DNA of 64,000 nucleotides, taken from the IMG/VR virus record IMGVR_UViG_3300029839_000128. One strand, given 5' to 3'. The translations under genes and the position numbers were made by a program. Numbering within the stretch: position 1 is the first letter of the stretch; the number at the start of each line of letters is the position of its first letter. Under the pieces are notes generated by a model that had not been told where the DNA came from, did no database searches, and saw only the letters and a list, made by a program, of their open reading frames with translations. This document shows, one piece after another, positions 1 to 28,144 of the stretch. The DNA comes from a virus (Duplodnaviria; Heunggongvirae; Uroviricota; Caudoviricetes).

Positions 1-547
1 CCATGGCGCAAATTGTTCTTGATTTCACACCAACGATGCAGGTACTCAATCAAATGCTGATTTCCTTTGGGCATCATAGTAGAAACAACAGGATGAATGG
101 TGACTGCGTGTAGACCGCATTCCTTGACCAGTTGATCCAGTCGGTTCTCGGTAAATTCCAGCACAACGGGGTTCCAGGTAGGCTCACCCATACGGGCATA
201 ATGGACATTGAAGCGGTTGGTAAAGCGCACATCCTCGTGCTCAATAATATAACGGATCTGATATTCCAAATCAGGCAGCGAGGCATTTCCGAAAAATCCA
301 TATTTATGAACATCGCAGAAAGTGCAGCTCATAGGACAACCCTTTTGTGTGCTGATCGTGGCGACCCATTTATCACGCAAATCAACCTCGCGATGGGTAA
401 CACCATCGATTTCTTTGGTCAGGCCGAGAAAATTCGCTTTAATGTTGTTCTCTTTGCCGTAGTCTCCGACGGTAAGAAACTCCAAACCGCGCATAGGGTT
501 AAAGTAGATCTTGCCGGTATGAGTCAAAACCATTTGTGTGTCTGACA
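1..547 (-). CDS. radical SAM domain protein, N-terminal part only (gene continues beyond window start)
   Basis: Hand translation of minus strand from ATG 547-545. It is absent from the ORF track because there is no stop inside the window. Sequence MSDTQMVLTHTGKIYF...KGCPMSCTFCDV...ARMGEPTWNP. CxxxCxxC cluster typical of the radical-SAM 4Fe-4S site plus a Gly-rich GEP motif. Open to position 1. Confidence 0.6.
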
Positions 548-558
548 TAATAATCCTC

Positions 559-884
559 CTATTTGCCGAACGCCTCTTCATAGGTGAGTTCGGTAACTTC
601 AAGAATGGCATTTACTTTAGCGTTGTTAATTCTGCCGCTGCTCAGGGCGGAACGCAGACGGAGGCCAGTTTTTGTCTCCAAATCTTTAATGAAGACGTGG
701 TTTTCACACATCCATTTGCGAAGTCCCGGAAACACAACAGACTGAGGTTTAACATGAATACTTCGGTTTTTGCGACCTTGGATTGCCTCATGGACGGCTT
801 GTTTGCTGATACCATACAGATCGGCAATCGCCTGATAGGTCATACCGCGTCTGCGGCATTCGATATATGCTTCAACTTTTGTCA
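559..884 (-). CDS. HTH DNA-binding protein (resolvase/sigma-region-4-like helix-turn-helix)
   Basis: ORF track 559..894. True start probably GTG 884-882 or an internal ATG. Motif GMTYQAIADLYGISKQAVHEAIQ is a classic HTH. Confidence 0.5.
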
Positions 885-903
885 AATCAATCACCTGAAT
901 AAT

Positions 904-1335
904 TTAATGAGTTGCAATAGGGCAGATGGTCATTCCGCGATCTTTGAAATATTGAATAGCATCGTCGGCGTGTAAATGCTCGAAAATCCATTCGACAGAG
1001 ACATAACGACGCTCTTTATAGGTTGTTCGGTAGGAAATGGTCTTGAAGTCTTTGGGGAAGAGTTTGCAGACGGAATCTTCCGGCCATTCACGGTGCCATG
1101 CACGAATATAAGGACGCCTACGAAAGAAGGTATGCGCCATATACAAACCTTCGTAAATATCAGCGTTCTCTGACTCCAGGCGATCTCTCATCAGTTCCCA
1201 ATCAATCGCGTTAGCAATTACCAGAACTTCCGGGATTTTTGCGTCGTCGCCACTACACCAACCGCTATACCCACACCGCACCCATTCGCCATCATCGATC
1301 TTAAATTCGTGGGCTACATCATAGATTTTCAACAT
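904..1335 (-). CDS. hypothetical protein (143 aa)
   Basis: ORF track. Tightly packed with neighbours on the same strand. Confidence 0.5.
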   Translation of the reverse strand: MLKIYDVAHEFKIDDGEWVRCGYSGWCSGDDAKIPEVLVIANAIDWELMRDRLESENADIYEGLYMAHTFFRRRPYIRAWHREWPEDSVCKLFPKDFKTISYRTTYKERRYVSVEWIFEHLHADDAIQYFKDRGMTICPIATH

Positions 1336-1704
1336 TTAACGCTTCCTCCAAGTATAACGCTTAACGCGAACATCCAACTTATAGCGTTGAGCGGTTTCTA
1401 TCATGTGGTGAGTTCCTTTGCTCTGTCCGTCCCAAAAAGCTACAAGCGCATCGGCGTTCTTTGCCATTTCCTCATTGCGGATGTATCCAGCAGCGCGTCC
1501 GTGTTCATCCCAGTCAGCTTCAAAATACCGGATACTATAACCGCGCTCTTTGGCATAGCGCTCACCAAGTCGATCGGCCCCACGAGCCATACCACAAACA
1601 ATTTGGATCTCATCGGTCACATTTGCCAGCAGTCGATCCATAACTTGAGCAAGTCCCTCGTAGTTATTGAAGTCACGGCCACCAGCAATGATTACGCGAA
1701 ACAT
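1336..1704 (-). CDS. SLOG-family (DUF2493/YspA-like, DprA/LOG-related) protein
   Basis: IIAGGRDF...GMARGADRLGERYAKERGY...ADALVAFWDGQSKGT matches the Rossmann-like SLOG/DUF2493 phage protein pattern. Confidence 0.55.
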   Translation of the reverse strand: MFRVIIAGGRDFNNYEGLAQVMDRLLANVTDEIQIVCGMARGADRLGERYAKERGYSIRYFEADWDEHGRAAGYIRNEEMAKNADALVAFWDGQSKGTHHMIETAQRYKLDVRVKRYTWRKR

Positions 1705-1716
1705 GAGACCACCTCG

Positions 1717-2175
1717 TTACAGCTTATACAGCACCAGACTATTGTGCTCAAATACTTCAGCCAACATATCCAGCACTGCGCCCCAGTCGCCACCGGCAAG
1801 ACCGCAGCCAATTCGATAAGGCATAGCAATTTCTACGTCAGGCGGAATATAGCCGGCAACTGGAGAACAGGCAGTCCGAAGAGCGCTCAGATCAGTACAA
1901 GAGCGAAAACGACTGTAATCCAGTTGACCAAACAAATTGATAATCATTCGTCCATCTCTGACATGGACACCAAGGTTTTGCCCTAACAGTTCAGCAGGGT
2001 TACGGCGGTGTTCATTGCAGACGCGCTTATACTCCTCATACACTTCAGGGTACATTGCTTTGATCTGCTTGGCAATACCAGCGCCCATAACTCCCATACA
2101 ATTCACTTGATGGCAGATATACATAGCTCTGGAACGAAGAACATCACCTTTCTTAATGGTAATCATTACAGCCAC
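1717..2175 (-). CDS. macro-domain protein (ADP-ribose binding/processing, Appr-1''-pase family)
   Basis: ICHQVNCMGVMGAGIAKQIKAMYPEVYEEYK resembles the macro-domain N-terminal Gly-rich ADP-ribose pocket. Size 152 aa. Confidence 0.6.
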   Translation of the reverse strand: MAVMITIKKGDVLRSRAMYICHQVNCMGVMGAGIAKQIKAMYPEVYEEYKRVCNEHRRNPAELLGQNLGVHVRDGRMIINLFGQLDYSRFRSCTDLSALRTACSPVAGYIPPDVEIAMPYRIGCGLAGGDWGAVLDMLAEVFEHNSLVLYKL

Positions 2176-2999
2176 ACCTCTACATATTCACGCTCTTTGG
2201 AGAAAATAGGCGGACACTTATCGACAACCCACCGTCGGCGCTCGATAATACGGTCTTCCATGGGGATACCTACGATCTGCTTATAGCAGCAAGAACCATA
2301 TTTCATACAGTGAGGATAATCCTCCCAATCAATGCCACGCTCCAGCAACATTTCCAGAATGTTGGCTTGGTTTTTCTTATGCAGTTCCTTGGCACTGTAA
2401 AATGCTTGCCCCGCTGCTTCAATACTGTTGCGAATGGCATCCTGCTGTCGCCAGATCAAACAGTTGCAGACTTCTTCTTTGGGTAGGGTAAAAACACGAG
2501 AATCAAACAGGGCATCTTTAGTAATCGCTTTTGAATATCGCCGGCACCGCTCTTTATCTTCCTCTGAATTAAAATCAACACGATGCTCCTTTTGATTGAT
2601 AGCGGAGTTCCGCATAAAGAAGTGACGCATCTGTTCTTTGAATGCGCGATTAAAAGCCAAGGTTGCCATGCTTGCAGAAACGCTTGCCATCTTCTGAATA
2701 TTGTAACCAAACCAACTGTCTGTGGTGAGGGTAGCGTAATCGGTAAGCACCAAGGTAATCTCATCGGACTGGGTATATCCGAAAACACAACCCTGAATAT
2801 TCTCACAGAGATATTTCATCGTATCCTGCATAGCGGCGGTCAACACTTCATCAAAAGGTTTTTTGAAGCCTTTGGTAAAGGTATGAAAAGCTTTACCATC
2901 CAATCGAATGATGACAGGAACACGACGGGTTAGATAATTCCGAGAGACGCCCTCGTACTTCTTCATACGATCGCCTAAGCTATCTTTCTTGTTTGCCAT
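2166..2999 (-). CDS. tRNA-His guanylyltransferase (Thg1)-like protein (TLP), 3'-5' nucleotide addition / tRNA 5'-end repair enzyme
   Basis: N-terminus RRVPVIIRLDGKAFHTFTKGF and GYTQSDEITLVL match the two Thg1-family catalytic motifs (hhhR.DG+.F.+F and SDE carboxylates). Length 277 aa fits. Confidence 0.7.
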   Translation of the reverse strand: MANKKDSLGDRMKKYEGVSRNYLTRRVPVIIRLDGKAFHTFTKGFKKPFDEVLTAAMQDTMKYLCENIQGCVFGYTQSDEITLVLTDYATLTTDSWFGYNIQKMASVSASMATLAFNRAFKEQMRHFFMRNSAINQKEHRVDFNSEEDKERCRRYSKAITKDALFDSRVFTLPKEEVCNCLIWRQQDAIRNSIEAAGQAFYSAKELHKKNQANILEMLLERGIDWEDYPHCMKYGSCCYKQIVGIPMEDRIIERRRWVVDKCPPIFSKEREYVEVWL

Positions 3000-3024
3000 A
3001 TCATTTTACCTCCTGATTGGCAGT

Positions 3025-3813
3025 TTAGTTGTTGATGGGGGGGGTAAGACAAGCGGCTTCAACTTTATCGTACTCTTCCCAAGGAATACGAACGGCGTGC
3101 TTGTGATCTTCCAGATAGGCAGTTCGACCATTAGCAATCAGCCAGTTATCAAAAAAGGTCTGCATTTCCGCAATAGCAGCATCTCCAATGTCGCTGAAAG
3201 CGTCTTCATACAAATCTTCGCAGGCAGAATCAACGATACTACGAGCGTCCAGGCTCATATGAATCTCCGAAGTACCCCATACATACTGCGGACGCTGGGT
3301 GGGATCTGTCCAGTCGTCATTATTCCAGCTATCAAAGAACTCATCCCAGTCTGTAAAGTAGCCATCGTTATATGGGAAGTAATCGCTATGACACATGGTA
3401 AATTTGGTGCCAAGAGCATTTGGCTCATACTTTGTGGCGCGGTCAAAAGCTTCCTGCAATTTCTTCTGCTCTTTTGCCCACTTGCGCTGCTGAGCCGCGC
3501 TACAGTCACATTGCAAAGTTGTTCTGGGAAGCTGTTTGCCACAGTCGGGGCAATAACGGACAATCCCGTTATAGCAGTTAGGGCAAAAAGAAATAGACTG
3601 ATGTTGATACGGAAACATACCGAATTTCTTATCAGGATCGTCAGATAAGCCATAGCGATTAGGTACAATACTTACACCGGTACCTTTGCAGACTGGACAA
3701 ATACCTTCATTGTCATGCAGATCTTTAACCAACTCTTGCTCTAACAAATGGGCAAACGCATCTTTTACACTCACTGTTTCACGAACTGGTTTAACAAAAT
3801 CAGACATAGGCAC
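3025..3813 (-). CDS. Cys-rich zinc-ribbon protein, unknown function
   Basis: Several CxxC pairs (CPVCKGTG, CPNCYNG, CPDCGKQ, CDCSAAQ). ORF track. Confidence 0.5.
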   Translation of the reverse strand: MPMSDFVKPVRETVSVKDAFAHLLEQELVKDLHDNEGICPVCKGTGVSIVPNRYGLSDDPDKKFGMFPYQHQSISFCPNCYNGIVRYCPDCGKQLPRTTLQCDCSAAQQRKWAKEQKKLQEAFDRATKYEPNALGTKFTMCHSDYFPYNDGYFTDWDEFFDSWNNDDWTDPTQRPQYVWGTSEIHMSLDARSIVDSACEDLYEDAFSDIGDAAIAEMQTFFDNWLIANGRTAYLEDHKHAVRIPWEEYDKVEAACLTPPINN

Positions 3814-3816
3814 ACC

Positions 3817-3999
3817 TCAAAACTCATTTTCCATGGAATGATATCTTTGAGGACACCCTTTGCACAACTCCTCCGCATAGGCGTCTCCATCAGGGCATTG
3901 CATACCATATCCATACTCACAGCTCAAATCCTGGGTATCTCCATACCATCTTTCTGTGATGGTGCCACCACAAGCACCAGTATAGCAAACATCGTTCAT
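3817..3999 (-). CDS. small Cys-rich protein (60 aa)
   Basis: ORF track. RBS GGAGG 7 nt upstream. Preceded by the conserved leader motif (4013-4033) and a sigma70-like promoter (4039-4066). Confidence 0.5.
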   Translation of the reverse strand: MNDVCYTGACGGTITERWYGDTQDLSCEYGYGMQCPDGDAYAEELCKGCPQRYHSMENEF

Positions 4000-4012
4000 G
4001 CACTAACCTCCA

Positions 4013-4066
4013 AATGATTTTATGAGTTGCTAAAAATAGTATATCACGGATCTCCAATTTGTCAAG
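4013..4066 (-). promoter_or_regulatory. sigma70-like promoter (TTGACA-N17-TATACT, 4039-4066) followed by the conserved 21-nt leader motif TTAGCAACTCATAAAATCATT (4013-4033) abutting the RBS
   Basis: Read on the minus strand: CTCTTGACAAATTGGAGATCCGTGATATACTATTTTTAGCAACTCATAAAATCATTTGGAGGTTAGTGCATG. Confidence 0.55.
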
Positions 4067-4117
4067 AGGAAATCCGTGATTTTATGAGTTGCTATTTGAA
4101 GTTTTTGCGAAGACGGC

Positions 4118-4705
4118 TCAGAGTGGAGCAAGATGGAAAATTACTGCCGTGGGATCGGCATTTTCCTTCAGCGTCTTCTTATACCGCTTTTTCCACCACT
4201 GGTAGATATGTTCATGGTTTTTAATAGATAAAAAACCCTCAATGAGCATTTGCGGCTCATTATAGTATAAACCAAACTCCTTTAAGTCTTCATCAGAAAA
4301 AGCACTTAAAGGCTTCTCTTGGACACCGGAGATAACTGCAGAGTGCCGAATAGCATAATCAGGAAGCTGATTAGCAGAAGACCACCGAGAAGCCTCCTCA
4401 ATTTCTGAGAAGTAGGTTTCATTGTTAGGTGGTACTATGCCACATTCTAAAACTACTTTACCGTCAAGGCGATAGAGAATGCCAGGAATATCATCTTCCG
4501 GTTTAATCTCGCCATTTTCCCGACGATAAACATGACAAATAACTTTTTTGAACGATTCTTTAATTTGCAGGGTATCGCCAATGTGGTACTCGCCTTTGCC
4601 AGCAGGAATAGCAAAAATCGAAAGTTTTTTGGCTATGAAGAGTTCCATATCAGCTGCATTCAGCGCCAGGTACATAGTCAATTCCCTCCAATCGCAACTG
4701 GGCAA
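4118..4705 (-). CDS. hypothetical protein (about 185-195 aa; start TTG 4705 or ATG 4675)
   Basis: ORF track. Its 5' end overlaps the 3' end of the frameshifted methyltransferase reading frame. Confidence 0.45.
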   Translation of the reverse strand: MPSCDWRELTMYLALNAADMELFIAKKLSIFAIPAGKGEYHIGDTLQIKESFKKVICHVYRRENGEIKPEDDIPGILYRLDGKVVLECGIVPPNNETYFSEIEEASRWSSANQLPDYAIRHSAVISGVQEKPLSAFSDEDLKEFGLYYNEPQMLIEGFLSIKNHEHIYQWWKKRYKKTLKENADPTAVIFHLAPL

Positions 4706-5455
4706 CCTCCGCCCAAGGAAGCCCGAAATAAGGGCTTTTCTTTTTGTCGCAGGTACCGTTATCGATACCTATGTACTGCCGCCCTTCCATTTTGGCAGCA
4801 ATCAAAGTGGAGCCGGTGCCGCAGCAGTTGTCCAGGACTACCCCCCCGCATTAGTGAAGGTACGGATAGCATATCGCAAAAGCTCGATAGGTTTTTCGGT
4901 AGAATGCAGCGCCACGGAAGGGTGAGGCTTGGGAAACCGCCAAATGGAAGCCGGATACTTCAAATCACTATCGGAAGACTGAACAAGAGTGTAGTCGCCA
5001 TAGCTCCGGTTAGAATGAATGTCTTTGGCCTGTTTTCCTACAGCAGAACCCTTGCTATGATTTTTCGCGCCCTTTACCATCTGCGGATGATAGACAGGCA
5101 AAAATTTATAAAAGACCATAATATCTTCGTGCTCACGCAGCGGCATTTTCTTGGCATTTAGGAAGCCGCTTTTGAGAACCTTATCCCAAATAATGTTGTA
5201 TCGGTGGAGTTTGGGATTGGAAAGCATCATGGTTGCGGTGAATTTATCCTGACCAAAAAGGAGAATGACTCCATGGGGTTTAATAATCCGCTCGTACTGC
5301 TCCCAGAGTTTATCAGGTGGGATGATCACATCCCACTGATTTTGAGTCGTTCCGTAAGGGAGATCCGCAAAGATCATATCAATGCTTTCGCTATCGATCT
5401 CCTTCATTACTTCCAGACAATCGCCGTTGATTACCGTATTGGGAGTAATGCTCAT
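4650..5455 (-). pseudogene. beta-class N6-adenine/N4-cytosine DNA methyltransferase interrupted by a frameshift in a C7/G7 homopolymer (4841-4847); possibly phase-variable
   Basis: Track ORF 4838..5455 has FADLPYG (DPPY-type motif IV) and ends NAGG* at the G7 run. Reading one nucleotide later continues VVLDNCCGTGSTLIAAKMEGRQYIGID... (motif I FxGxG) to a TGA at 4652-4650. A one-nucleotide insertion (G8) restores one 268-aa ORF. Confidence 0.7.
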
Positions 5456-5479
5456 AGTATCAACCTTTCGTTTGTTCCG

Positions 5480-5812
5480 TCATTCTTTTTTTTGAGCGCC
5501 TACAAGAGATTGATTGATACAATCGCAAACCTCACAGTAGCTCTTCATAGCTTCTTTAAGCTGAATCTGTTTTTCCTGGGGGAGCTTCTGGATCTCACGT
5601 CCCAGAATAGCAAGCGCTTCTGTTTCAGCGGCATCCATAAACAGGCTTGGGTCAATGGACTTGCCGGCATTAAAAGTTTTTTCATAAGAAGAGTTCATCC
5701 ATTCATGGAATTGGGCTTCCTGAATAGGGTTGAATGGAATACCCATCAACCCCATCAGGGTGGCCTCAAACAAACTTTGGGGAAGTTGCTGCAGATATTC
5801 AAATACGGTCAT
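5480..5812 (-). CDS. hypothetical protein (110 aa)
   Basis: ATG 5812 preceded by GGTAAGGAGG RBS. Longer track ORF 5480..5863 trimmed. Confidence 0.5.
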   Translation of the reverse strand: MTVFEYLQQLPQSLFEATLMGLMGIPFNPIQEAQFHEWMNSSYEKTFNAGKSIDPSLFMDAAETEALAILGREIQKLPQEKQIQLKEAMKSYCEVCDCINQSLVGAQKKE

Positions 5813-5822
5813 AATATCCTCC

Positions 5823-6122
5823 TTACCAGCAATCACCAAATGCCTGATAGCCAAGCTGGACACTGGATTTCCATTCGGCTTTCAGACGGGCTTTTAACTC
5901 GTTAGAGAGACCGCTGCACATGGCCTTGGTAAACTGGACGGTTTCATACTGACAAAGATAAGTGTCGTCATCAGAAGTGCCAAAGGCGACATACATACCG
6001 ACTTTATCTGCCCATTCGCAAATACCGTCGATTGTGGCTTTGTGCTTTGCGTAGTAGGCGTCCAGATCGGTAATGTTCTTGTCCAGTGTGAAAGATCCGC
6101 GCACAAACTTCTTCTTTGCCAT
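5823..6122 (-). CDS. hypothetical protein (99 aa)
   Basis: ORF track. Operon packing. Confidence 0.45.
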   Translation of the reverse strand: MAKKKFVRGSFTLDKNITDLDAYYAKHKATIDGICEWADKVGMYVAFGTSDDDTYLCQYETVQFTKAMCSGLSNELKARLKAEWKSSVQLGYQAFGDCW

Positions 6123-6127
6123 AGCGC

Positions 6128-6571
6128 TTACCTCTTTCCGGTAGAGCCGATCCCACCACGATCCTCGTTACCCAGGGTCTCCACGGCCTCGAAAATCAGC
6201 TGCGGCTGGTGCTCAATAATGCGGAACTGACAGATGCGATCGCCGGCATGAATAACGGTATCGCGTTTCGCCTCAGCAGGGAAAAACCACTGGTCATTAT
6301 CGCCACAGTAGGTTTCGTCAATGATACCAATACTATTGGTCTGGGTAATGCCGAAGTTCTTGAGGGTAGAGCTGCGAGGAGCCACAAGAGCCTCATAACC
6401 TGCGGGCAACTGCATGGCAACACCCAGGGGAATGAGTTTGCATTCGCCCTGCTTCAATTCCACATCTTCGGCAGCGCGGAGGTCAATCCAGTTTGACTTG
6501 CTTCCACCTACATAGGTAAGCGGTTCGATCTTGTCGCTAAGATAGCGAATTTTAATAGTTTGCTGGTTCAT
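6128..6571 (-). CDS. dut: dUTP diphosphatase (dUTPase)
   Basis: [11 protein letters not shown] (motif III) and C-terminal [10 protein letters not shown] (motif V) are typical of trimeric dUTPases. Confidence 0.85.
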
Positions 6572-6585
6572 ACGATATATCTCCT

Positions 6586-7101
6586 TTAACCCAGATATTT
6601 TTTGAACAATTCAGAAAGCTTCATATTATTCTGCTTTGCCAGCTCAATGGTGCAAGCACAGATATTCTTTTCGGTAGACGCGCCAATCTCATCACAAAGA
6701 TAGGTAAGAATATCACTATATTTGCGAGAGTTATAACACGCCTTTTTATCATAATCAGTGCCAAGACAACTGCCGCTTTCGAGATCTTCGCAATCATCGC
6801 ACAGGTGAATGCGCGTATAGCCATCCCACGCCTGCAGCTTTTCGCGGTGAATAGTAAACTCGGCATTGACAGCTCCAAGATTTGCGCCCTGAGCGTGCCG
6901 CCACCAACCCCAACCATTTTCCCAATCCTCCTCGTTGATAGAACAGAGATTGGAAAAATCTTCATCTGACAGCTCCCAGACCTGATATTCCTCACGGGGG
7001 CTGTCCTTGGGTGGTACATAATGGTAGGCACAAACAGCAGTGGTTAGATCGAGAGCTTGGACAGCCCGTTCAAAATGACCACCAGCAAGAATTTCAACCA
7101 T
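6586..7101 (-). CDS. hypothetical protein (171 aa, Cys/Trp-rich)
   Basis: ORF track. Confidence 0.45.
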
Positions 7102-7113
7102 TGGGAAACCTCC

Positions 7114-7377
7114 TTACAGCTCGATCTTTCGGTTCTCAAACTTCTTATAGGCGTCCAGATAAACTTCTCCCTTATCGCCATTGTAGGTAACTTCGTAATA
7201 CATCCCATCAAACAGAGTGGTAGAGAGCAATGCTTTGAAGTTTTGGAGAGTCTTGCAATACCAGACCACGAAGACCTTGTATTCTACCGGGCCGTCAGAT
7301 TTGTCCAGGTGCTCGTCGGTGTATTCTGCAACAAGGTCGATAGCTTTGCTCAAAAATTCACTATCGGTTTTAATCAT
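7114..7377 (-). CDS. hypothetical protein (87 aa)
   Basis: ORF track. Confidence 0.45.
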   Translation of the reverse strand: MIKTDSEFLSKAIDLVAEYTDEHLDKSDGPVEYKVFVVWYCKTLQNFKALLSTTLFDGMYYEVTYNGDKGEVYLDAYKKFENRKIEL

Positions 7378-7585
7378 TGAAATTCTCTCCTTTCAATACT
7401 TCATCAGATGTTTTGATATATAAGCCACAGTGACACATACCACTTTCCATTTCACGGAACTCTTTACACATACATTTAGTGTCTGGACTTCTGATAAGGA
7501 CACATGGGCAATATCCATCATTTTCTTTCAACTTCGCCCTAATTTCTTCTGCGTACTTTTTGTCGGGATTTACTTTAATCCTCAT
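7370..7585 (-). CDS. ferredoxin-thioredoxin reductase catalytic-subunit-like protein
   Basis: CPC...CMC...CHC spacing (GYCPCVLIRSPDTKCMCKEFREMESGMCHCGLY) matches the FTR catalytic-chain Cys pattern. Adjacent to nrdG/nrdD/glutaredoxin. Confidence 0.55.
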   Translation of the reverse strand: MRIKVNPDKKYAEEIRAKLKENDGYCPCVLIRSPDTKCMCKEFREMESGMCHCGLYIKTSDEVLKGENFND

Positions 7586-7597
7586 GCTATCCTCCTA

Positions 7598-8080
7598 TTA
7601 TGAAAGCTGCATAGCAAACTGGTTATCTGAAGAAAGAGTAATGCCGAGAACATCATCATATCTGTTCGCCTTATCGGGAATAAACCTGCCAAACTTAATA
7701 ATGATATTTTTATATTTCTTCAGACGATCAAGCTTAGGCTGTATTTCGTTTGGATAGTAGCCCGTGTAAATAACGATAGGGGAGATATCTCCATTTGAAC
7801 GAAATAACTTGATCAAAGTCTCGACCTCATCAATTTGCAAGAACGGCTCCATACCGCCAATTACAACCGCTTTAGTGATTGGATTATTTGCAAAATGCTG
7901 ATAAATCACTGAGTCGGGGATGTCTTTTGATGGAGCCTGGGCAAGAGGTGCGTTTTGACACACCTCAATACCCAGGTTCGATTCAGTACAGCATTTGAAA
8001 TCACAAAAACAGGTGTTAATGAACATGGAGGGGAGTTTGAAATTGGTAAAATCTTCTTCAATAATCCCCTTTACACGCAT
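7598..8080 (-). CDS. nrdG: anaerobic ribonucleoside-triphosphate reductase activating protein (radical SAM, short form)
   Basis: 160 aa. Cys cluster NTCFCDFKCC near the N-terminus. Start overlaps the nrdD stop (8080). Confidence 0.7.
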   Translation of the reverse strand: MRVKGIIEEDFTNFKLPSMFINTCFCDFKCCTESNLGIEVCQNAPLAQAPSKDIPDSVIYQHFANNPITKAVVIGGMEPFLQIDEVETLIKLFRSNGDISPIVIYTGYYPNEIQPKLDRLKKYKNIIIKFGRFIPDKANRYDDVLGITLSSDNQFAMQLS

Positions 8081-10002
8081 TACATGACCTCTTTCTTTGT
8101 CAAAACGTCATACCACTTTCTCTCATTAAACTCCTGCTTGCGAATTTTTTGGTAACTGCTTACGGGAGTATAGAAGCCAACAACGCGAGCATATGTATCT
8201 GCTACCGGTTTGCCGCAGCTGGGACAAGTGCTCGTTCCCATAAAAGCGTGTTTGTCAGCACACACAGAGATTTTCGTCGTGAACGCGAAGTAAATCACAC
8301 CCTGGCTTGCCACATAATTAAGCATATCCCAAGCAGCATCCTCATTCGGGAAGCGGCTTTCAATATCGATATGGGCGATGCAGCCACCGCCACATTTCTT
8401 ATCGAACAGATTTCCAAGCCGGCACTTTTCCTGGATCGTGCATTTCTCCATGAGCGGAATCCACTGATTGCTGTAGATAAAATACTTGTTCTGCTCGAAC
8501 AAAAGATTGTCTGCTGCACAAATGACACCGGCACAATTTTCAGCAGGAATCATCTCCAGATTGAATGTGAAATCACACTCAAAGTTGTCCTTTACATCAT
8601 TGATCGTGTCCAAAATTTCAGTGGCGAACTCCACGGCCTCATCGGAATACGACTTGTTACCCATTTCGTCCTCATTGATCAGACCGAACAGATCCATAAC
8701 CTCATACATACCGATGCCACCAATCGTACAGAACTGCTTATCCAGTTCCACAGCTCCATCCTGATAGTTCGGCAGAAGCCCTTTTTCAATGTTGCGCTTG
8801 ATTACATGACGCATAGAGAACAAAGCCTTACAATCAAGCAGCACGCGGTCTTTGAGGATATCGATATATTTCTTCTTGTTGAGCTTGCTTTCATAAGCAA
8901 TTCGTACCAGGTTAATGGTGCTCACGCGGCAAGAACCTACGCTCAGAGCAGTACCGCCGATAGAATTGATAAAGGCATCCAGCTTTTTTGTATCGCTAAG
9001 CAGTCGGCAACAGTTGCTCAAAATACCAATATTGTCACTGACAAAGAAGTTGGAATCAGACCACTTGATGTTATGATTGCTGCACCAACGAGCAAACTTT
9101 TCGTCCTGGAACTTTCCGTCTTTATAGTAGAGAGAGTATGTCAATACCGGGTAGGTGAACATATTTTCCTCGCGGATTTCACTCACAACCTCCATAAAGA
9201 CCTTCTGGAACTCAACCAAGTCTTCAATATGGTCAATAGCAAGCTGTCCATCTGGGAACTCAACGCCACCAAACAAAGACTCCAGATACGGACGATCAAA
9301 AATTGATACGTTGGTGAAAGCGCTCTGATCGATACGAAGGAAGGGCTGGTTCAAGCGATAGATAAACTTCTGGAACTGTTGACGAGCATAGTAGTTTGGA
9401 TCTTTCATGTAATATCCGCCATCTACATCTTTCTTCCAGAAATACCAAGCCCAAATCAAAACATTGGGGAGTCCAACCGCGCCAGACTGACGATTAGAAA
9501 GGAAGGAAACAAACTCAATCACATCATCAAAGTAGGTAGTAAGGTGCTTCGGTGCCTGATGGTTATAATGATCGAGAAAGAAAAGTCCTTCTGTTGCCAG
9601 CCTTGTCAAATCATTTGCCCAACAATAGGGGAAATAGCTCGCGGTTGTGCTGTCATTCAAATAGAATCCCTTACTGAACTCCTGCTCCAGCCACTGTTTT
9701 GCTGTGCGCAAACCCCACTGCTTCTTAATGGTGAGAAAAATTTTGTTCAGCGCAAACAGCTTGTCTTCGCTCTTTCCTTTTTCTGTCATAAAGCTTCTGA
9801 TATCTTTATGGTTTGCATTTGCATTAGGATCAATCGAGGCATCAGCCAGAGTGTCTTTATCAACGAAATTGTCGATAAATTCGGAAAAATCAAGCTGACT
9901 GGGATGCAGCCCGTTAATATACTCAAAGTCCTCGCCGTACCGCTTCTTCAAATCTTCAAAACAACGCTCGAAGTCTTTTGACAGTTTTAGAGTAATCTCC
10001 AT
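8080..10002 (-). CDS. nrdD: anaerobic ribonucleoside-triphosphate reductase (class III RNR)
   Basis: 640 aa. C-terminal Zn ribbon CPSCGKP plus glycyl-radical motif RVVGFYTP (C-terminal Zn ribbon plus glycyl-radical motif, typical of class III RNR). Confidence 0.85.
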   Translation of the reverse strand: MEITLKLSKDFERCFEDLKKRYGEDFEYINGLHPSQLDFSEFIDNFVDKDTLADASIDPNANANHKDIRSFMTEKGKSEDKLFALNKIFLTIKKQWGLRTAKQWLEQEFSKGFYLNDSTTASYFPYCWANDLTRLATEGLFFLDHYNHQAPKHLTTYFDDVIEFVSFLSNRQSGAVGLPNVLIWAWYFWKKDVDGGYYMKDPNYYARQQFQKFIYRLNQPFLRIDQSAFTNVSIFDRPYLESLFGGVEFPDGQLAIDHIEDLVEFQKVFMEVVSEIREENMFTYPVLTYSLYYKDGKFQDEKFARWCSNHNIKWSDSNFFVSDNIGILSNCCRLLSDTKKLDAFINSIGGTALSVGSCRVSTINLVRIAYESKLNKKKYIDILKDRVLLDCKALFSMRHVIKRNIEKGLLPNYQDGAVELDKQFCTIGGIGMYEVMDLFGLINEDEMGNKSYSDEAVEFATEILDTINDVKDNFECDFTFNLEMIPAENCAGVICAADNLLFEQNKYFIYSNQWIPLMEKCTIQEKCRLGNLFDKKCGGGCIAHIDIESRFPNEDAAWDMLNYVASQGVIYFAFTTKISVCADKHAFMGTSTCPSCGKPVADTYARVVGFYTPVSSYQKIRKQEFNERKWYDVLTKKEVM

Positions 10003-10003
10003 C

Positions 10004-11996: not shown

Positions 11997-12035
11997 GTAA
12001 CCACTCCTTGCAATAATTTAATGAGTTGCTATGAA

Positions 12036-23185: not shown

Positions 23186-23431
23186 TTATTTTTCTTTAGA
23201 GCTGCTTGAACTGTGGCTAAACAGTAGGTAACACAAGAAGTACAGCGCGTAAGCCTGCCAGTATGTAATAGCAGGGAGGCTAAACACAGCCGGCACTACC
23301 GCATTCCAAAGCAGCATGACCGGAAGTGCAGCCACCAAACCAATCACGGCCACCAGAACAGCAGCAAGGAACACCACACCAATACCATAAATCAGGGTTT
23401 TCACTACATTTCCTCCTCTCTTAATGGGCAT
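23186..23431 (-). CDS. small membrane protein (2 TM segments)
   Basis: Hydrophobic segments. Start overlaps the stop of the kinase-HD gene (operon end). Confidence 0.5.
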   Translation of the reverse strand: MPIKRGGNVVKTLIYGIGVVFLAAVLVAVIGLVAALPVMLLWNAVVPAVFSLPAITYWQAYALYFLCYLLFSHSSSSSKEK

Positions 23432-24332
23432 GAAGATCGCATTCGTTCAAGATCAGAAGACGGTTCCACTCCGCCTCGCCAATCAAATTAACGAGCTTTT
23501 TCATAGTCTTCTGGGGATTATCAGACTTGGAAACCACATAAGGGTACATATGCCAGCGGATCAGGAGCGCGACGGCCAGACGCTCTTTGGTGCTGAGATC
23601 TCCGGTATAGGCGAAGCTATCGTAAGCACCAACGCGCTCATGGTGATAGTAATGAGCAACCTCAGTGGGTTCGCCATGGGAATCATGGAAAACCTTGGTG
23701 TGCTCTTTACCAATATCATGGAGAATAACCGCACGCTTGAGAGCAATATCGGCATCGGGATAGTGGTCGAGCAGATAAGCCCAAGCCACCAAACAATGCT
23801 GACCAATGGTGAACTCGTGGTGGGGATTGTCATGTTCAATGGCGCAAAGGCGTCTGAGAGCATCGTCCAAAATCTCGTATCCGTAGTCGTTCTCGATCCA
23901 GATATCGTCCCAGCCCTCAGACATCATAGGAATGTCGAAGCTCTCATACATTCGCTTAATGACACTTTCAGGAATGGTGCGCTCTCTGGCGGCGTTGTTT
24001 TCCAAGCATTTGTAATAAGGCGCTGCCGTAAAAACACAGGCGGCATTGAGATTGGGAATGCGAAGCGCCCGTACACGGCTCAAAAACTGCTGGCGGCGGC
24101 GGAAGTTGATATTAGTGGCGTCGTAGACCACATTCTTGCCGGTGCGGAGGTCTTCAAGCACCCGGTCATGGAGCGTCTGGAAAACCAACTCCTGATTGCT
24201 CTGGTCGGAGATATTGCCCAGCAGCTCCTCGCGGATCGCGTCGCTGGAATGGATTACGGCGTCGGGCAGCTTTTGGGCATAATAGCTTTTGCCGCTTCCA
24301 GGGAGACCGACCATCATATAGAAATATTGCAT
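23421..24332 (-). CDS. P-loop polynucleotide kinase domain fused to HD phosphohydrolase domain (putative RNA 5'-kinase / 2',3'-phosphoesterase end-healing enzyme)
   Basis: N-terminus MMVGLPGSGKSYYA (Walker A, T4 Pnk-like). C-terminal HD motifs ...H...ILHDIGKEH...H. Translationally coupled to the upstream NTase. Confidence 0.65.
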   Translation of the reverse strand: MQYFYMMVGLPGSGKSYYAQKLPDAVIHSSDAIREELLGNISDQSNQELVFQTLHDRVLEDLRTGKNVVYDATNINFRRRQQFLSRVRALRIPNLNAACVFTAAPYYKCLENNAARERTIPESVIKRMYESFDIPMMSEGWDDIWIENDYGYEILDDALRRLCAIEHDNPHHEFTIGQHCLVAWAYLLDHYPDADIALKRAVILHDIGKEHTKVFHDSHGEPTEVAHYYHHERVGAYDSFAYTGDLSTKERLAVALLIRWHMYPYVVSKSDNPQKTMKKLVNLIGEAEWNRLLILNECDLHAH

Positions 24333-25144
24333 CAGTTCATACCTCCAATCTCAGAAAGAAAACAACGCTTGAGAATTTCTACCGTTGCGGTTTGAAGAAC
24401 TTCCTCCGCGTGCTTGTTGATAATGGGAGGGTAGGTATCCATATAATTCTTCTTGTCGGCAATCATGGTCTCAATGGTCTTGGACATAAGCTCCCGTGCT
24501 TGTTCCAAAGTGCAGCACCCACGTTTGACATCCATCAGGTAATCATGCTGGGCGCTGATCAGGCAATCCTCATAAGGAACGCCGGCAAGGTATCGGGTCA
24601 TAAACTCCCGCATACGCAAGGCGTGATGGAGTTGCTTGGGATCGTAGCCAAAGCGCTCGATCTTATCCATGGTGGCGGGATAGGGATGTTCCATTGCCTT
24701 TTGCTTTTCCAGAGCCATACCGACCAAACAGTTGACCCCGGCATAGTTGTTGTAGCGAGCAATATCCTCTCTGGCATCCAACACAGATTGGAAAAGATCT
24801 TCGTATTTGGGATTGAGGATCATATAGCGCGTAAACAAAATTTCGACAAAATTGACATTTTGCTTCTTGATACAATCGAACATCAAACGAATGTCTTTGA
24901 AGTCTAAGTGCTCATTATTCTCCATGATATGGGTAGTGCTAACTGGCTTACGGTTAAGTACAAAATCAGTGAAACTGGGAAGCACGATCACTTTGGTATC
25001 AATGTCGCTGCCCTCGTAATCCAGATCGTAGTTTTGAGATCCCTGCAAAAACAGCCCGACCCACTCCATACCAGATTTCATAACGGGCACCAGATGTTCT
25101 GCCATCCGTGCATAGATTTTCTTAGCTTTTTCAAAATCAGTCAT
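24332..25144 (-). CDS. pol-beta superfamily nucleotidyltransferase (possibly tRNA nucleotidyltransferase-like)
   Basis: GSQNYDLDYEGSDIDTKV equals the GS..(x)..DxD NTase signature. 270 aa with a helical C-terminal domain. In the operon with the RNA ligase and kinase-HD. Confidence 0.55.
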   Translation of the reverse strand: MTDFEKAKKIYARMAEHLVPVMKSGMEWVGLFLQGSQNYDLDYEGSDIDTKVIVLPSFTDFVLNRKPVSTTHIMENNEHLDFKDIRLMFDCIKKQNVNFVEILFTRYMILNPKYEDLFQSVLDAREDIARYNNYAGVNCLVGMALEKQKAMEHPYPATMDKIERFGYDPKQLHHALRMREFMTRYLAGVPYEDCLISAQHDYLMDVKRGCCTLEQARELMSKTIETMIADKKNYMDTYPPIINKHAEEVLQTATVEILKRCFLSEIGGMN

Positions 25145-25448
25145 CGTATGGCTCCTTTCTGATACAGTCTCGAACGAGTCGCTGATACAACAGTGGGTCG
25201 TATTGTTCCATATCCGACCAGAACATCAGATACTCGCTGTTCTTATATGTGTCTGTCACATCGCCAGAAGCGTCATAGAATCGGCCTCCAATCTCCTGAA
25301 CGAAATGGTTTTTGACTGGCTCATACATCATAGTTCCGCCAAAACGCTCTTGGAGGATAAAGGCAAACCAATAGCAACATCCACATAAAAAAGTTTCCTC
25401 AGCACCTTTGAAATGACGAATGAAATCAAGAACGATTTCTTTATCCAT
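25137..25448 (-). CDS. hypothetical protein (about 103 aa)
   Basis: Start MDKEIVLDF at 25448, overlapping the ligase stop by 8 nt (track ORF is longer). Confidence 0.4.
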   Translation of the reverse strand: MDKEIVLDFIRHFKGAEETFLCGCCYWFAFILQERFGGTMMYEPVKNHFVQEIGGRFYDASGDVTDTYKNSEYLMFWSDMEQYDPLLYQRLVRDCIRKEPYDD

Positions 25449-26940
25449 TGACTTCCTCGGAAACCTCCTGCTGCTCTTCCATATCAGGAGCGGCAGCGGA
25501 TTCTTTGATAATGCCCTCCAGCACCTTGAACGCAAAATTCTTATGCTTGTAGGCAGTAAACTTGGGACGGTTGACAATGCGAACAACCACACCCTCGCGA
25601 ACATGAGACTTTCCTACGGGATCAGGGCCGTCATAGAACTTCTCAGCCTGTTCCTTAACATAAGCACCAGCGTCGATATCGATAATGCTGCCCACATCAT
25701 CGGCGAGCGTAGAATAATGAGGAATATATTCCTTGCAGAAAACAGGAACACACTTGACACCCATCTGCTCACAACGGTAACGCATGAAGTCGGGGGTATA
25801 TTCCACCACATCGCCGTCCTCGTTAGTCATAGTCATACGATAGACATACATATCAGACTTAGGAGCATCCTCATACATCGCCTTGGTATTGACGCTGGTA
25901 GCAGAGAGATCCCCAATATCTGAGGTGGGGGTTGCAACCGGCTGATCACTGATGAACTTACGGCCATTGGGTTCACATCCATAGCTGAAAACAGTGGTTT
26001 TCCCGTACTGTTTGGTAAACTCCTTATCTCCAACCTTTGAATTGCTACCAGGAGACATAATTGGCGTTCCGTCATCAGTAAAGCCTACCACTTCATAGTA
26101 GACAGTTTCGCCTTTGTGGAGCTTTCCCTCAAAGGCTTTCGCGTGCTTCTCACGAAACGCATTGCTGCCATAAAATCCGCCGTCATAGCCATCCAAAACC
26201 ACACGACGAGTGCCAGTCACATAACCCCAATCGTAGATAGGAGTACGTTTGATGCGACGAGCAAGCCATCCAGGAATCTTCTCACTCTCATACAATGCCT
26301 TTGTCAAACGATTGCGGTAAGAGTATCCTTGAAGGATAGGAAGGAAGCCGGTACGCTGAGAAGTTCCGTGCATTTTCAGAGTAATCTCAATGAGATCACC
26401 AGGGCGAAATGCGCTCAGATTATAGGCCAGCTGCTCAGTATCGGAATGCTCGGTAAACAGAGGGGAAATAGGATCGTGCTTTTTACGAACGCGATTTCCG
26501 CCAATACCTCCACTATGAGATCGGCTTGCCTTGGGAATGTATTTCTCACAAATGGTAACACCATTCAAAATGGAGATGGTATCTCCCTCTTTGAGCTTGG
26601 AGATGTCTGTAAAATCTTTCAGACTGGACAGGGGAAGAAACAAACCGTCACTCTTCTCTCCTCTCAGCTTCAGCGCCTTGATATTGCGTTTTTCGGGATC
26701 AAGATATCCGCCGGCAGGATTCCCGTTCTGATCTTTACGACGCAGCAGATCATTCTTCTGAGCAAACTCAATACCCAGCTTACCGTCTGTAGGGAAGTAA
26801 ATGCCCAGCTGGTCAGGTTCCGTACCAAGATCCACAATAACGGTGTTGCCAAAACATTCGCCGCAGAGCAGACGATCTGCATTGGTATGCTTTCGCAGAT
26901 TGCGAATCCTGGTCACATACGCGCAGTACAAATTGATCAC
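25441..26940 (-). CDS. ATP-dependent RNA ligase, Rnl2-like nucleotidyltransferase domain with N-terminal extension
   Basis: Motif I EITLKMHGTSQR (KxHGT, as in T4 Rnl2 KIHGTN). Motif IV-like YYEVVGF. Motif V-like KHKNFAFK. 499 aa. Preceded by the leader motif and AAGGAG RBS. Confidence 0.7.
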   Translation of the reverse strand: MINLYCAYVTRIRNLRKHTNADRLLCGECFGNTVIVDLGTEPDQLGIYFPTDGKLGIEFAQKNDLLRRKDQNGNPAGGYLDPEKRNIKALKLRGEKSDGLFLPLSSLKDFTDISKLKEGDTISILNGVTICEKYIPKASRSHSGGIGGNRVRKKHDPISPLFTEHSDTEQLAYNLSAFRPGDLIEITLKMHGTSQRTGFLPILQGYSYRNRLTKALYESEKIPGWLARRIKRTPIYDWGYVTGTRRVVLDGYDGGFYGSNAFREKHAKAFEGKLHKGETVYYEVVGFTDDGTPIMSPGSNSKVGDKEFTKQYGKTTVFSYGCEPNGRKFISDQPVATPTSDIGDLSATSVNTKAMYEDAPKSDMYVYRMTMTNEDGDVVEYTPDFMRYRCEQMGVKCVPVFCKEYIPHYSTLADDVGSIIDIDAGAYVKEQAEKFYDGPDPVGKSHVREGVVVRIVNRPKFTAYKHKNFAFKVLEGIIKESAAAPDMEEQQEVSEEVNG

Positions 26941-26989: not shown

Positions 26990-28144
26990 TTAAAGAGAGG
27001 TGGTATTCATGGATTTGAGGCTTTTTGCAGCCGCAGCGATTGCTTTGGCAGCAGTTCTCATTTCATCAGCCGTAGTGTCTGTACCCATGGAAATACGAAT
27101 AGTAGACGCAGCCAACTCTTCGGGAATACCAGCTCCCATAAGAACATGAGAAGGGTTAGGACTTCCAGCGCTACAGGCAGATCCGGCGGAAACACAAATA
27201 TCATCCTGATCCAATCGAAGCACCATTGCCTCACTATTTACACCAGGTACGGTCAAGCTGATAATGTTTAGCGCGGTATTATTCCCACCATTGATGGAAT
27301 ACTCATCGGGTTCCATATGAATAGCAAGACTATCAAAGAAGACCTTGCGAAGCGACTGCCATTTATCTTTCCATACGTTCAAATTTTTAACAACAAGCTC
27401 AGCAGCAACTCCCAGAGCGATGATACCAGGAACATTTTCAGTACCTCCACGAATACCGCACTCCTGACCTCCGCCGTAAATAAAAGGTTTTTTAGGGATA
27501 TCACTGCGGATATATAGAATACCAGTCCCCATAGGAGCGCCAAACTTATGGCCGGAAAGGGAAAGCATATCTATATGACAAGCTTTTACATCCATAGGCA
27601 CATGACCTGCGGCCTGAATTGCATCCACATGGAAAGGAACATTATAGGTTTTACAAAGAGTTCCAATATCTTTGATGGGATTGATAGTTCCCAACTCATT
27701 ATTGACCCACATAACGGACACAGCACCAACAATGCCATGGTATTGATCCAGTTTTGCTTTCAAGTCTTCCAAGTCTACTGCGCCAGCAATGTCTACTTTT
27801 GCGAAGATTGGACGGGCATAAGCAGCAGAGATAACGCATTTTTCTACCGGTTCTAAAATGGAGTGGTGCTCTACTTTAGTGGTAATAATAATATGACGGT
27901 TAAGATTTTTGATCCAAGCATTGTTCGATTCGGTGCCTCCGCTGGTAAAATAGATCTCAGACGGATCGGCATTGATCATCCGGGCAACCTGCCGGCGTGC
28001 CTTTTCGATTGCTTGATGTGCCCGCACACCCTGAGAATGAATGCTGCTTGGATTGCCTACATGATCAGGCTGAAGCCATTGAAGCATCTGTTTAAGCACT
28101 TCGGGGTGTACGGGAGTGGTTGCTGCGTGATCAAGGTAAATCAT
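26990..28144 (-). CDS. cysteine desulfurase (class V aminotransferase, IscS/NifS-like)
   Basis: MIYLDHAATTP start. SLSGHKFGAPMGTGILYIRS PLP-lysine motif. GSACSAG C-terminal catalytic Cys loop. 384 aa. Confidence 0.85.
   Translation of the reverse strand: MIYLDHAATTPVHPEVLKQMLQWLQPDHVGNPSSIHSQGVRAHQAIEKARRQVARMINADPSEIYFTSGGTESNNAWIKNLNRHIIITTKVEHHSILEPVEKCVISAAYARPIFAKVDIAGAVDLEDLKAKLDQYHGIVGAVSVMWVNNELGTINPIKDIGTLCKTYNVPFHVDAIQAAGHVPMDVKACHIDMLSLSGHKFGAPMGTGILYIRSDIPKKPFIYGGGQECGIRGGTENVPGIIALGVAAELVVKNLNVWKDKWQSLRKVFFDSLAIHMEPDEYSINGGNNTALNIISLTVPGVNSEAMVLRLDQDDICVSAGSACSAGSPNPSHVLMGAGIPEELAASTIRISMGTDTTADEMRTAAKAIAAAAKSLKSMNTTSL

Follow-up and report, generated by a model that had tools for sequence, protein, structure and literature searches.

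A bacterial-type Thg1-like protein, a candidate tRNA 5'-end repair enzyme, encoded in a Caudoviricetes phage genome

Introduction

The chemistry of bacterial-type Thg1-like proteins (TLPs) is well understood, their natural substrates and purpose are not. The closest solved relative of the protein described here is the TLP of Bacillus thuringiensis (BtTLP), which has been described as primarily a 5'-end repair enzyme; its conserved carboxylates are D30, D75 and E76, and the incoming nucleoside triphosphate (NTP) is contacted by E12, R28, R131 and R147 (PMC3701042). In phages, a comparative study of jumbo phages names Thg1 as an RNA-repair gene of sporadic occurrence that restores 5' nucleotides (PMC7824862). 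In the present study we analysed a TLP gene in a 64,000-nucleotide stretch of a virus of the Caudoviricetes (IMG/VR virus record IMGVR_UViG_3300029839_000128); this whole stretch is called the window below. The product is with near certainty a bacterial-type TLP. We propose, with a probability of about 0.6, that it would mend damaged 5' ends of tRNAs by templated 3'-5' addition and would belong to the RNA-repair and counter-defence repertoire of the phage.

Results and Discussion

Identity, active site and fold of the TLP

The gene and its elements are the following:

2166..2999, minus strand: TLP gene, 277 amino acids, ATG start (open reading frame list, profiles and AlphaFold2 model)
TLP residues E16, R32, D34, K47, S78, D79, E80, R168, R184 and N191: catalytic residues
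TLP residues about 118-162: variable helical-hairpin insertion
3009..3014, minus strand: Shine-Dalgarno sequence AGGAGG, 9 nucleotides upstream of the TLP start, read from the sequence

A first-pass annotation, made from the letters alone, had recognized a Thg1-like polymerase in the open reading frame (ORF) 2166-2999 by two motifs. Both are present in the translation, VIIRLDGKAFHTF as residues 29-41 and QSDEITL as residues 77-83, and profile searches bear the assignment out. The protein matches Pfam PF04446 (Thg1) over profile positions 2-130 of 130 with 109.7 bits (cut-off 29.2, E=1.3e-31) and was thereby placed in the Thg1 family and not in an unrelated nucleotidyltransferase (NTase) family. 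PHROG 4717, named 'tRNA-His guanylyltransferase', is matched with E=4.5e-90. Among solved structures, 4kgk (BtTLP) is found with E=4.7e-60 and the Methanosarcina acetivorans TLP 5axk with E=5.7e-13, and eukaryotic Thg1 structures reach only about 1e-4 to 1e-5 (human Thg1 4e-5). No NCBIfam model matching the protein was found.

The chain numbering of 4kgk in our alignment is that of the BtTLP paper (PMC3701042). Residues D34, D79 and E80 align with D30, D75 and E76 of BtTLP, the three conserved active-site carboxylates (D29, D76 and E77 in human Thg1). E16, R32, R168 and R184 align with the NTP contacts E12, R28, R131 and R147, and K47, S78 and N191 with K43, S74 and N154, which are residues of 5'-end activation and NTP binding. 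All of these mapped positions are invariant in an alignment of the protein with 25 homologues (n=26), including the catalytic Asp and Glu, for which the first-pass annotation had asked for such a comparison. The mean column identity of this subfamily alignment is 59%, with strongly conserved blocks. The TLP is predicted, with near certainty, to be an active enzyme.

The AlphaFold2 model (predicted local distance difference test, pLDDT, 82.9; predicted template modelling score, pTM, 0.82) has a polymerase-like palm and fingers fold. All 32 significant Foldseek matches in the PDB are Thg1 or TLP structures; BtTLP is the best of them (E=1e-19), with a target-normalised TM score of about 0.8. Compared with BtTLP, about 33 residues (net) are inserted at query 124-162 (4kgk chain 120-125). 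In the model they extend the long palm helix 97-130 and then form a low-confidence disordered loop or tip and a second helix 145-160. This region differs in length and sequence across the subfamily.

Palm-domain relatives such as Cas10, GGDEF and mCpol make signalling nucleotides, and they do appear as weak structural matches to the TLP model (E above 0.06). One might therefore regard the protein as a decaying or repurposed copy that has no polymerase role and acts, for instance, in binding or as a nucleotide cyclase-like signalling enzyme of the palm-domain type. However, the subfamily has kept all catalytic and NTP-binding residues of BtTLP without exception, a strong Shine-Dalgarno sequence precedes the full-length ORF, and thousands of close homologues exist, all of which makes this reading very improbable.

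The protein was also assigned to a subgroup. By E-value it is nearer to bacterial and archaeal TLPs than to Thg1, and the HINNLYN-type segment of anticodon recognition is absent: the segment DAIRNSI aligns to human DCHINNL, which is part of the HINNLYN region, and BtTLP reads likewise. Because of DAIRNSI in place of DCHINNL, we regard the protein as TLP-type and not as an anticodon-reading Thg1. This bears on a reading that is invited by the family name and by the annotation 'tRNA-His guanylyltransferase', namely that the enzyme is specific to tRNA-His and adds or restores G-1, templated by C73, on host or phage tRNA-His. In vitro, TLPs of bacteria and archaea are able to add G-1 opposite C73, which counts for such a role; that G-1 in bacteria is normally genome-encoded and kept by RNase P counts against it. 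In addition to the missing motif, a search for tRNA-His genes gave none, either in the 64-kb window or, in 85 related loci, less than 10 kb from the TLP. The listing of jumbo phage genes mentions 'especially in the histidinyl tRNA' (PMC7824862), whereas the repair activity described for BtTLP argues in the other direction (PMC3701042). Taken together, specificity for tRNA-His appears unlikely.

Occurrence in phages and hosts

The view that such an activity is unusual for a phage, expressed in the first-pass annotation, was an overstatement. The family has a PHROG of its own and is included in the jumbo phage listing (PMC7824862), and a tblastn search found relatives of the TLP in 162 of 50,697 GenBank phage records (42-55% identity; query coverage of at least 80% in 149). 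The hosts of these phages include Bacillus, Prevotella, Caulobacter, Mycobacterium and Fusobacterium, and the majority of the relatives are annotated 'tRNA-His guanylyltransferase'. Bacillus phage G gp378, Fusobacterium phage Fnu1 gp147 and a protein of Xanthomonas phage XacN1 are examples of phage Thg1-family proteins. In the protein database there are at least 8000 homologues at E<=1e-10, the best ones mostly with 276-288 amino acids. The TLP subfamily is encoded in at least 571 stretches of IMG/VR and in at least 581 stretches of GTDB genomes, the latter chiefly of gut Clostridia. The TLP gene is thus an ordinary representative, already annotatable, of a phage gene family that is known and has been annotated widely.

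For the analysis of gene neighbourhoods, loci comprising the TLP and 10 kb on either side were collected (82 viral and 80 genomic) and searched with the proteins of the window; they are labelled with L numbers. Prophage-like regions syntenic with the window were found in Dysosmobacter segnis BX15 (L086) and Hominicoprocola fusiformis (L089), and therefore an Oscillospiraceae host is suggested for the phage. A megablast of window positions 1-20000 against GenBank phages gave no match, and the phage is therefore without a close cultured relative. The window does match an IMG/VR contig, IMGVR_UViG_3300045988_147693 (123,263 bp), in which an exact 44-mer of the TLP gene is present. Another IMG/VR record, IMGVR_UViG_3300045988_141087 (126,623 bp), contains two TLP genes about 40 kb apart (L020 and L031), 61% and 57% identical to the query; their neighbours differ, with a replication block in one case and a NifS-like gene in the other.

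Association with RNA-end-repair genes

A cluster of putative RNA-repair genes lies distal to the TLP in the window:

23421..24332, minus strand: Pnk-like P-loop domain fused to an HD phosphohydrolase (Pnk-HD), by profile matches
24332..25144, minus strand: NTase, PHROG 388; no Pfam or PDB sequence match
25441..26940, minus strand: ATP-dependent RNA ligase (Rnl), PHROG 968 (E=2.5e-63), with weak PHA02142 OB-fold and RNA_ligase matches
26990..28144, minus strand: NifS/IscS-like class-V aminotransferase (cysteine desulfurase-like), by profile matches

These are the Pnk, NTase, Rnl and cysteine desulfurase genes already named in the first-pass annotation, which are indeed found between 23421 and 28144. 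A YunG-like protein is encoded between the NTase and RNA ligase genes.

RNA-end-repair genes are the commonest identifiable neighbours of the TLP subfamily elsewhere. The raw counts (Pnk in 34 of 82 viral loci, NTase in 29 of 82) were at first sight high, and reading them as a strong linkage was rejected when dereplication traced much of the signal to one large phage group. With TLPs clustered at 70% (70 lineages), Pnk was found near the TLP in 9, a NifS-like gene in 8, macro in 9 and SLOG in 8 lineages. Later, probes for RlaP, CCA-adding enzyme and a second ligase were added, nine genes of replication and nucleotide metabolism served as controls, and only loci in which the TLP is flanked by 8 kb or more on each side entered the final counts. 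At least one gene of the RNA-end-repair set (CCA-adding enzyme, RlaP or other NTase, Pnk, RNA ligase) lies within 10 kb in 26 of 56 lineages at 90% clustering and in 18 of 42 at 70% clustering. Any of the nine control genes is found at this distance in 15 of 56 and 11 of 42 lineages, respectively, and macro or SLOG in 13 of 56 and 11 of 42. The association of the TLP with RNA-end repair is moderate and not decisive, because the probe sets are imperfectly matched.

Pfam annotation of representative loci revealed that other lineages use different, non-homologous repair genes, in the following cases arranged with the TLP as tight operons. At L043 the order is Rnl, two further genes, TLP, NTase, one further gene and Pnk-HD, with overlapping ORFs. 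L084 has an RNA ligase and, after an interval, RlaP, a CCA-adding enzyme, one further gene and the TLP; at L006 the TLP is followed by two further genes, Metallophos, a NifS-like gene, one further gene, RlaP and a CCA-adding enzyme with HD domain. In Kiritimatiellia metagenome-assembled genomes (MAGs) the ORF of an AAA_33 kinase overlaps the TLP ORF.

Some further genes were observed around these loci. A NifS/IscS-like cysteine desulfurase is among the commonest tight neighbours of the TLP (4-5 independent lineages); at L006 this gene (11971-13173) stands between a calcineurin-like phosphoesterase and RlaP with the CCA-adding enzyme. The window also encodes a PAPS-reductase-like protein (PHROG 424; 21336-22178, minus strand); together with the desulfurase it may act in tRNA thiolation, in DNA phosphorothioation (DndA/DndC-like) or in another process. 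A Band_7/prohibitin (SPFH) gene is located 1-2.5 kb from the TLP in unrelated phages, namely Fnu1 (L166, 8389-9198) and L084 (12369-13328).

Proposed function of the TLP

By homology to the B. thuringiensis and archaeal TLPs, the enzyme would activate the 5'-monophosphate of a 5'-truncated tRNA with ATP or GTP and then add the missing nucleotides in 3'-5' direction, with the 3' strand of the acceptor stem as Watson-Crick template. Catalysis would proceed by two metals held by D34 and D79, together with E80 and R32. The TLP would most likely belong to an accessory RNA-end-repair set of 5' kinase/phosphatase, 3' nucleotidyltransferases and RNA ligase, which might keep the tRNA pool usable when nucleases of host defence or of competitors damage tRNAs during infection. 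Nuclease-cut RNA would carry a 5'-OH, and Pnk-HD could supply the 5'-phosphate that the TLP needs; NTases and CCA-adding enzymes could restore the 3' strand.

Several observations weigh against this proposal. The first-pass annotation had combined the TLP with the ligase, kinase and NTase genes and the cysteine desulfurase into a tRNA maintenance toolkit covering 5' repair, 3' repair, ligation and thiolation. The lineage counts given above support this idea in part; in the window, the distal Pnk/NTase/Rnl cluster is about 20 kb away from the TLP and the immediate neighbours of the latter are the macro, SLOG and zinc-ribbon proteins. After dereplication no single neighbour gene occurs in more than about 20-30% of lineages, and the cultured phages Fnu1, PMBT8 and PK-3 have no annotated repair genes beside the TLP. 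No nuclease that trims tRNA 5' ends was identified in the presumed hosts, and the variable 33-residue insertion relative to BtTLP may have consequences of its own. Finally, we found no experimental study, biochemical or genetic, of a phage TLP in the literature; for this reason we infer its substrate, tRNA, and its physiological trigger, and likewise the cooperation with Pnk, NTase and Rnl.

TLPs are numerous in phages of gut Clostridia and frequently have RNA-end-repair genes as neighbours; damage to tRNA ends may accordingly be a battleground of infection. TLP-bearing phages and prophages of these bacteria, for instance a related prophage of Dysosmobacter or another member of the Oscillospiraceae, may be a tractable place to find the physiological role of the enzyme.

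The gene block of the TLP and its macrodomain neighbour

Around the TLP the following features were assigned:

4038..4065, minus strand: best sigma-70-like promoter match, TTGACA-16-TG-TATACT, 11/12, preceding the block from orf60 to the helix-turn-helix (HTH) gene
3025..3813, minus strand: 262-amino-acid protein (orf262) with zinc-ribbon CxxC motifs, without family assignment
1717..2166, minus strand: orphan macrodomain protein, 149 amino acids; its ATG at 2166-2164 overlaps the TLP stop codon (TAATG)
1336..1704, minus strand: YAcAr-family SLOG domain protein, 122 amino acids, starting 12 nucleotides after the macro gene

The block is tightly packed and co-directional in the order orf60, orf262, TLP, macro, SLOG, orf143 and HTH. 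No terminator-like site was found by pattern scan on the minus strand from the promoter-like site down to position 559. Promoter and terminator evidence consists of pattern matches only, and promoter-like sites are in total no more numerous than expected from shuffling. In the phage lineage, orf262 is the invariable gene directly upstream of the TLP (14 viral and 2 prophage-like loci); besides a DnaJ-like CxxCxGxG motif it contains other CxxC motifs. Upstream of the TLP there are also genes for a DNA methylase, a dUTPase (by homology to L001), NrdD, a deoxynucleoside monophosphate kinase, ThyX, Pol III alpha, a primase-helicase, SSB and ERF, which belong to nucleotide metabolism and replication.

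The domain assignments of the two downstream neighbours, given in the first-pass annotation as a macro domain at 1717-2175 and a SLOG protein, agree with our results. The SLOG protein matches PF10686 with 67.8 bits (cut-off 28.2, E=7e-19) over profile positions 2-66 of 66; it fits a macro-SLOG pair better than tRNA repair. The macro gene probably starts at 2166, inside ORF 1717-2175, because the stop codon of the TLP overlaps this ATG, and the resulting 149 amino acids are the length of the L001 orthologue. The macro gene is translationally coupled to the TLP.

The macrodomain protein itself is only marginally matched by Pfam Macro (21.8 bits, cut-off 22), and 5m3i is found in the PDB with E=1e-10. 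Its sole NCBIfam match is the macrodomain part of antitoxin_DarG (NF048014, E=3e-17; profile positions 1-138 of 338, 62.8 bits at a cut-off of 250). A profile of nine family members compared with the PDB gave Bt_1257 (2afc/2fg1, 7e-21) as best match, followed by M. tuberculosis DarG (3e-18), SCO6735 (2e-16), T. aquaticus DarG (2e-14), TARG1 and Poa1p. N22 in the first loop is invariant in the family, as is Q81, which stands at the position of the catalytic Lys of DarG and TARG1 and aligns with the first Lys of the M. tuberculosis DarG TKK. Macro fold, Gln for Lys and the conserved Asn, three features of the SCO6735/Bt_1257 subclass of ALC1-like macrodomains, are all present. SCO6735 depends on its Q85 and cleaves off the ADP-ribose that DarT places on thymidine in DNA (PMC9411070). 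Stand-alone DarG2-like phage macrodomains (AdfM) are a demonstrated anti-DarT2 counter-defence (PMC13309987).

Two roles had been offered in the first-pass annotation for this protein. The one as a scavenger of ADP-ribose-1''-phosphate, a by-product of Tpt1-dependent splicing, is unlikely, because a Pfam scan of about 55 ORFs of the window, which did not extend to small ORFs or to the remainder of the 123-kb genome, gave no Tpt1/KptA (PF01885) and because the protein falls into the SCO6735/Bt_1257/DarG class. The other one, reversal of ADP-ribosylation, fits better, and the predicted role is de-ADP-ribosylation of DNA or possibly RNA. A canonical DarG antitoxin was considered too and was rejected, as there is neither a C-terminal DarT-binding domain nor an adjacent DarT.

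The close contact of both genes allows for another explanation of the TLP, in which it forms a two-gene module with the macrodomain that acts on ADP-ribosylated nucleic-acid ends and counters an RNA-targeting ADP-ribosyltransferase. Here, the macrodomain would strip ADP-ribose from the RNA 5'-phosphate (or a base), and the TLP would activate and extend the freed end. The stop/start overlap and the lack of a terminator-like site between the genes are in favour of it. Moreover, the adjacency recurs in unrelated lineages: in a Ruminococcus MAG (L110) the macro gene follows the TLP after a 34-nucleotide gap (identities 51% and 38%), and in Flavonifractor (L091) it is located upstream of the TLP. 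In view of these independent adjacencies a purely lineage-specific synteny, which we had considered before, was withdrawn; the pairing of TLP and macro is more than local synteny. The frequency of macro or SLOG within 10 kb (11/42 lineages) and a reported operon association of Thg1 with Tpt1/KptA, an RNA-end ADP-ribosyltransferase, in bacteria (PMC8120803) can be added. However, tight adjacency occurs in only 3 of 70 lineages and the majority of the close relatives of the phage (L003-L025) have no macro gene near the TLP. The nearest characterised relatives of the macrodomain act on thymidine-ADP-ribose in DNA, with AdfM directed against DarT2, and a clustering of counter-defence genes unrelated to each other would account for the neighbourhood as well. 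We therefore consider a joint action of TLP and macrodomain on the same ends rather doubtful.

A Ro60-like protein and an interrupted tRNA-like array

Next to the distal repair genes, the window contains:

28240-29775, minus strand: DUF2828/DUF7788 protein, PHROG 850, with AlphaFold fold match to Ro60/TROVE
30924-30813, 30728-30617, 30162-30050 and 29965-29853, minus strand: four tRNA-like genes of 112-113 nucleotides each, by Rfam and sequence reading

The DUF2828 protein has no sequence-level PDB match. Its AlphaFold model (pLDDT 73.5) has only six significant full-length matches in the PDB, and all of them are Ro60/TROVE structures. The entries 9kop, 9l5y (Ro60 of Thermus phage phiLo), 1yvr and 2nvo belong to them, and D. 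radiodurans Rsr and human Ro60 are represented. Because the model matches only Ro60/TROVE at full length, we regard the protein, on the basis of its predicted fold, as a divergent Ro60-like protein.

In the four tRNA-like genes the Rfam tRNA matches have about 46 nucleotides in place of anticodon loops, and no Rfam family other than tRNA is matched. When exactly 40 nucleotides are removed, two of the four elements become canonical tRNA-Gly(GCC) and tRNA-Asn(GUU). The inserted module consists of an A-rich lead, a hairpin, two nucleotides, the invariant (A/U)CAGCAA and 8-15 further nucleotides, and the hairpin base is a conserved G-Y-G/C-R-C. By a motif-anchored stem count with shuffle control, the hairpins of 33 distinct modules have 5.6 contiguous base pairs on average versus 2.5 in shuffles and show 4-5 pair types at the upper stem levels. 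RNAalifold predicted no structure on a MAFFT alignment of the modules, in which the 5' strands are out of register, and an ARAGORN scan of all deletions in the interrupted genes was not selective enough to be informative. Between loci, the split anticodon stem shows covariation in the Asn family. The module may either be spliced out or be the protein-binding part of a Y-RNA-like molecule.

With the DUF2828 protein as probe, 23 viral loci (L169-L191) with 47-99% identity were obtained, and almost all of them have 3-5 tRNA-like elements just upstream of the DUF2828 gene. A Band_7/prohibitin gene flanks the array in 16 of the 23 (in the window at 31547-32446, minus strand); Rnl, Pnk and NTase follow the array in only 4. 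A further element, predicted by ARAGORN as tRNA-Thr with the unusual anticodon AGU (30373-30449, minus strand), is below the Rfam tRNA threshold. It has A and not U at position 33 and an imperfect T stem, and may represent a further tRNA-like RNA of non-canonical type; in L169, GGU stands at the corresponding place.

Bacterial Ro60 orthologues are encoded next to tRNA-like Y RNAs (YrlA), which have a closed acceptor stem, carry a GNCGAAN0-1G motif and have their ends in the Ro-binding stem (PMC4201824). The array elements differ in these features and therefore resemble a separate class of Ro partner that is derived from tRNA. The gene of the Ro60-like protein sits between this array and the NifS, Rnl, NTase and Pnk genes. 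Together, these findings show the distal cluster to be a Ro-type RNA surveillance and repair module and not only a T4-like ligation kit. The combination of a Ro60-fold protein with an array of interrupted tRNA genes is more unusual than the TLP.

The array raises the question whether the TLP matures or repairs RNAs of the phage, either its own tRNAs or the tRNA-derived RNAs adjacent to the Ro60-like gene, and not host tRNAs. On one and the same genome, IMGVR_UViG_3300045988_147693, the TLP occurs together with an array of tRNA and interrupted tRNA-like genes, most of them without encoded CCA, and one member of the array in the phage studied here has a G1-U72 wobble. The acceptor stems of the array are otherwise perfectly paired, though, without any hint of 5' editing. 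No TLP was found within 6 kb of the array in the 23 related loci and, conversely, a tRNA gene of any kind lies no more than 10 kb from the TLP in just 13 of 86 TLP sources. A dedication of the enzyme to phage RNAs is accordingly not probable.

A more far-reaching form of the repair proposal is possible, and we put it forward tentatively. The TLP could be the 5'-end arm of a modular phage system which surveys and rebuilds tRNA ends, and which defeats acceptor-end toxins of hosts or competitors. In such a system, healing of the ends would fall to Pnk-HD and a phosphoesterase and sealing to Rnl; the acceptor stem would be restored by the TLP on its 5' strand and by CCA-adding or RlaP-type NTases at the 3' end. 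Coordination with the Ro60-like protein and its tRNA-derived RNAs might be part of it. If this were true, bacterial-type TLPs would gain a defined function in the conflict between phage and host.

Other features of the window

The GC content is 0.62 at 56001-58000 versus about 0.45 elsewhere in the window. ORF 56492-57307 has a weak sigma-factor-like PHROG match only and ORF 57450-58142 no match; the segment 56001-58000 may have been acquired recently. A helicase-methyltransferase of 1016 amino acids with DarB-like antirestriction similarity (PHROG 24008, PHROG 10089; 35431-38481, minus strand) and a DarA_C domain protein (49080-49526, minus strand) suggest a P1-like Dar antirestriction system.

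Comparison with known systems

Of all described proteins, BtTLP (4KGK/4KGM) resembles the phage TLP most directly, with about 40% identity over the whole length, the same fold, the same catalytic carboxylates and NTP-contacting Arg, Lys and Asn residues and the common motif WRQQDA-x-(K/R)NSI. The phage protein differs in its net insertion of 33 residues and in being phage-borne. With the phage proteins of PHROG 4717 it shares the family, the relatives being 42-55% identical; the subfamily described here, however, has 276-288 amino acids including the insertion and is typical of phages and prophages of gut Clostridia. No GenBank phage has a protein more than 55% identical to the TLP, and the neighbourhoods vary between phages. 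Eukaryotic Thg1 has the same fold, two-metal active site and chemistry, but is distant (17-21% identity, E=4e-5). In contrast to it, the phage TLP is without the HINNLYN-type segment that is used for recognition of the tRNA-His anticodon, and from its sequence it would be expected to carry out templated repair and not non-templated G-1 addition.

The macrodomain neighbour resembles the SCO6735/Bt_1257/DarG2/AdfM group in N22 and in the Gln at the position of SCO6735 Q85, and AdfM also in being a stand-alone phage macrodomain. It differs from DarTG, where a C-terminal DarT-binding domain and an adjacent DarT belong to the system, and from AdfM, which as described keeps the catalytic Lys (K78), whereas the family of the macrodomain neighbour has Gln.

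Regarding RNA repair as a whole, the window has analogues of T4 Pnkp and Rnl1, a phage-encoded kinase/phosphatase and an ATP-dependent RNA ligase that presumably heal and seal tRNAs cut by nucleases. T4 repairs breaks in the anticodon loop and has no 3'-5' polymerase, whereas the window has extra NTases and the TLP; its phosphatase is an HD domain and not of the T4 DxDxT type, and its ligase is of the PHA02142/Naegleria-like type. Another parallel is offered by the bacterial operons of rsr, Y RNA and RNA ligase, which the distal cluster of the window resembles.

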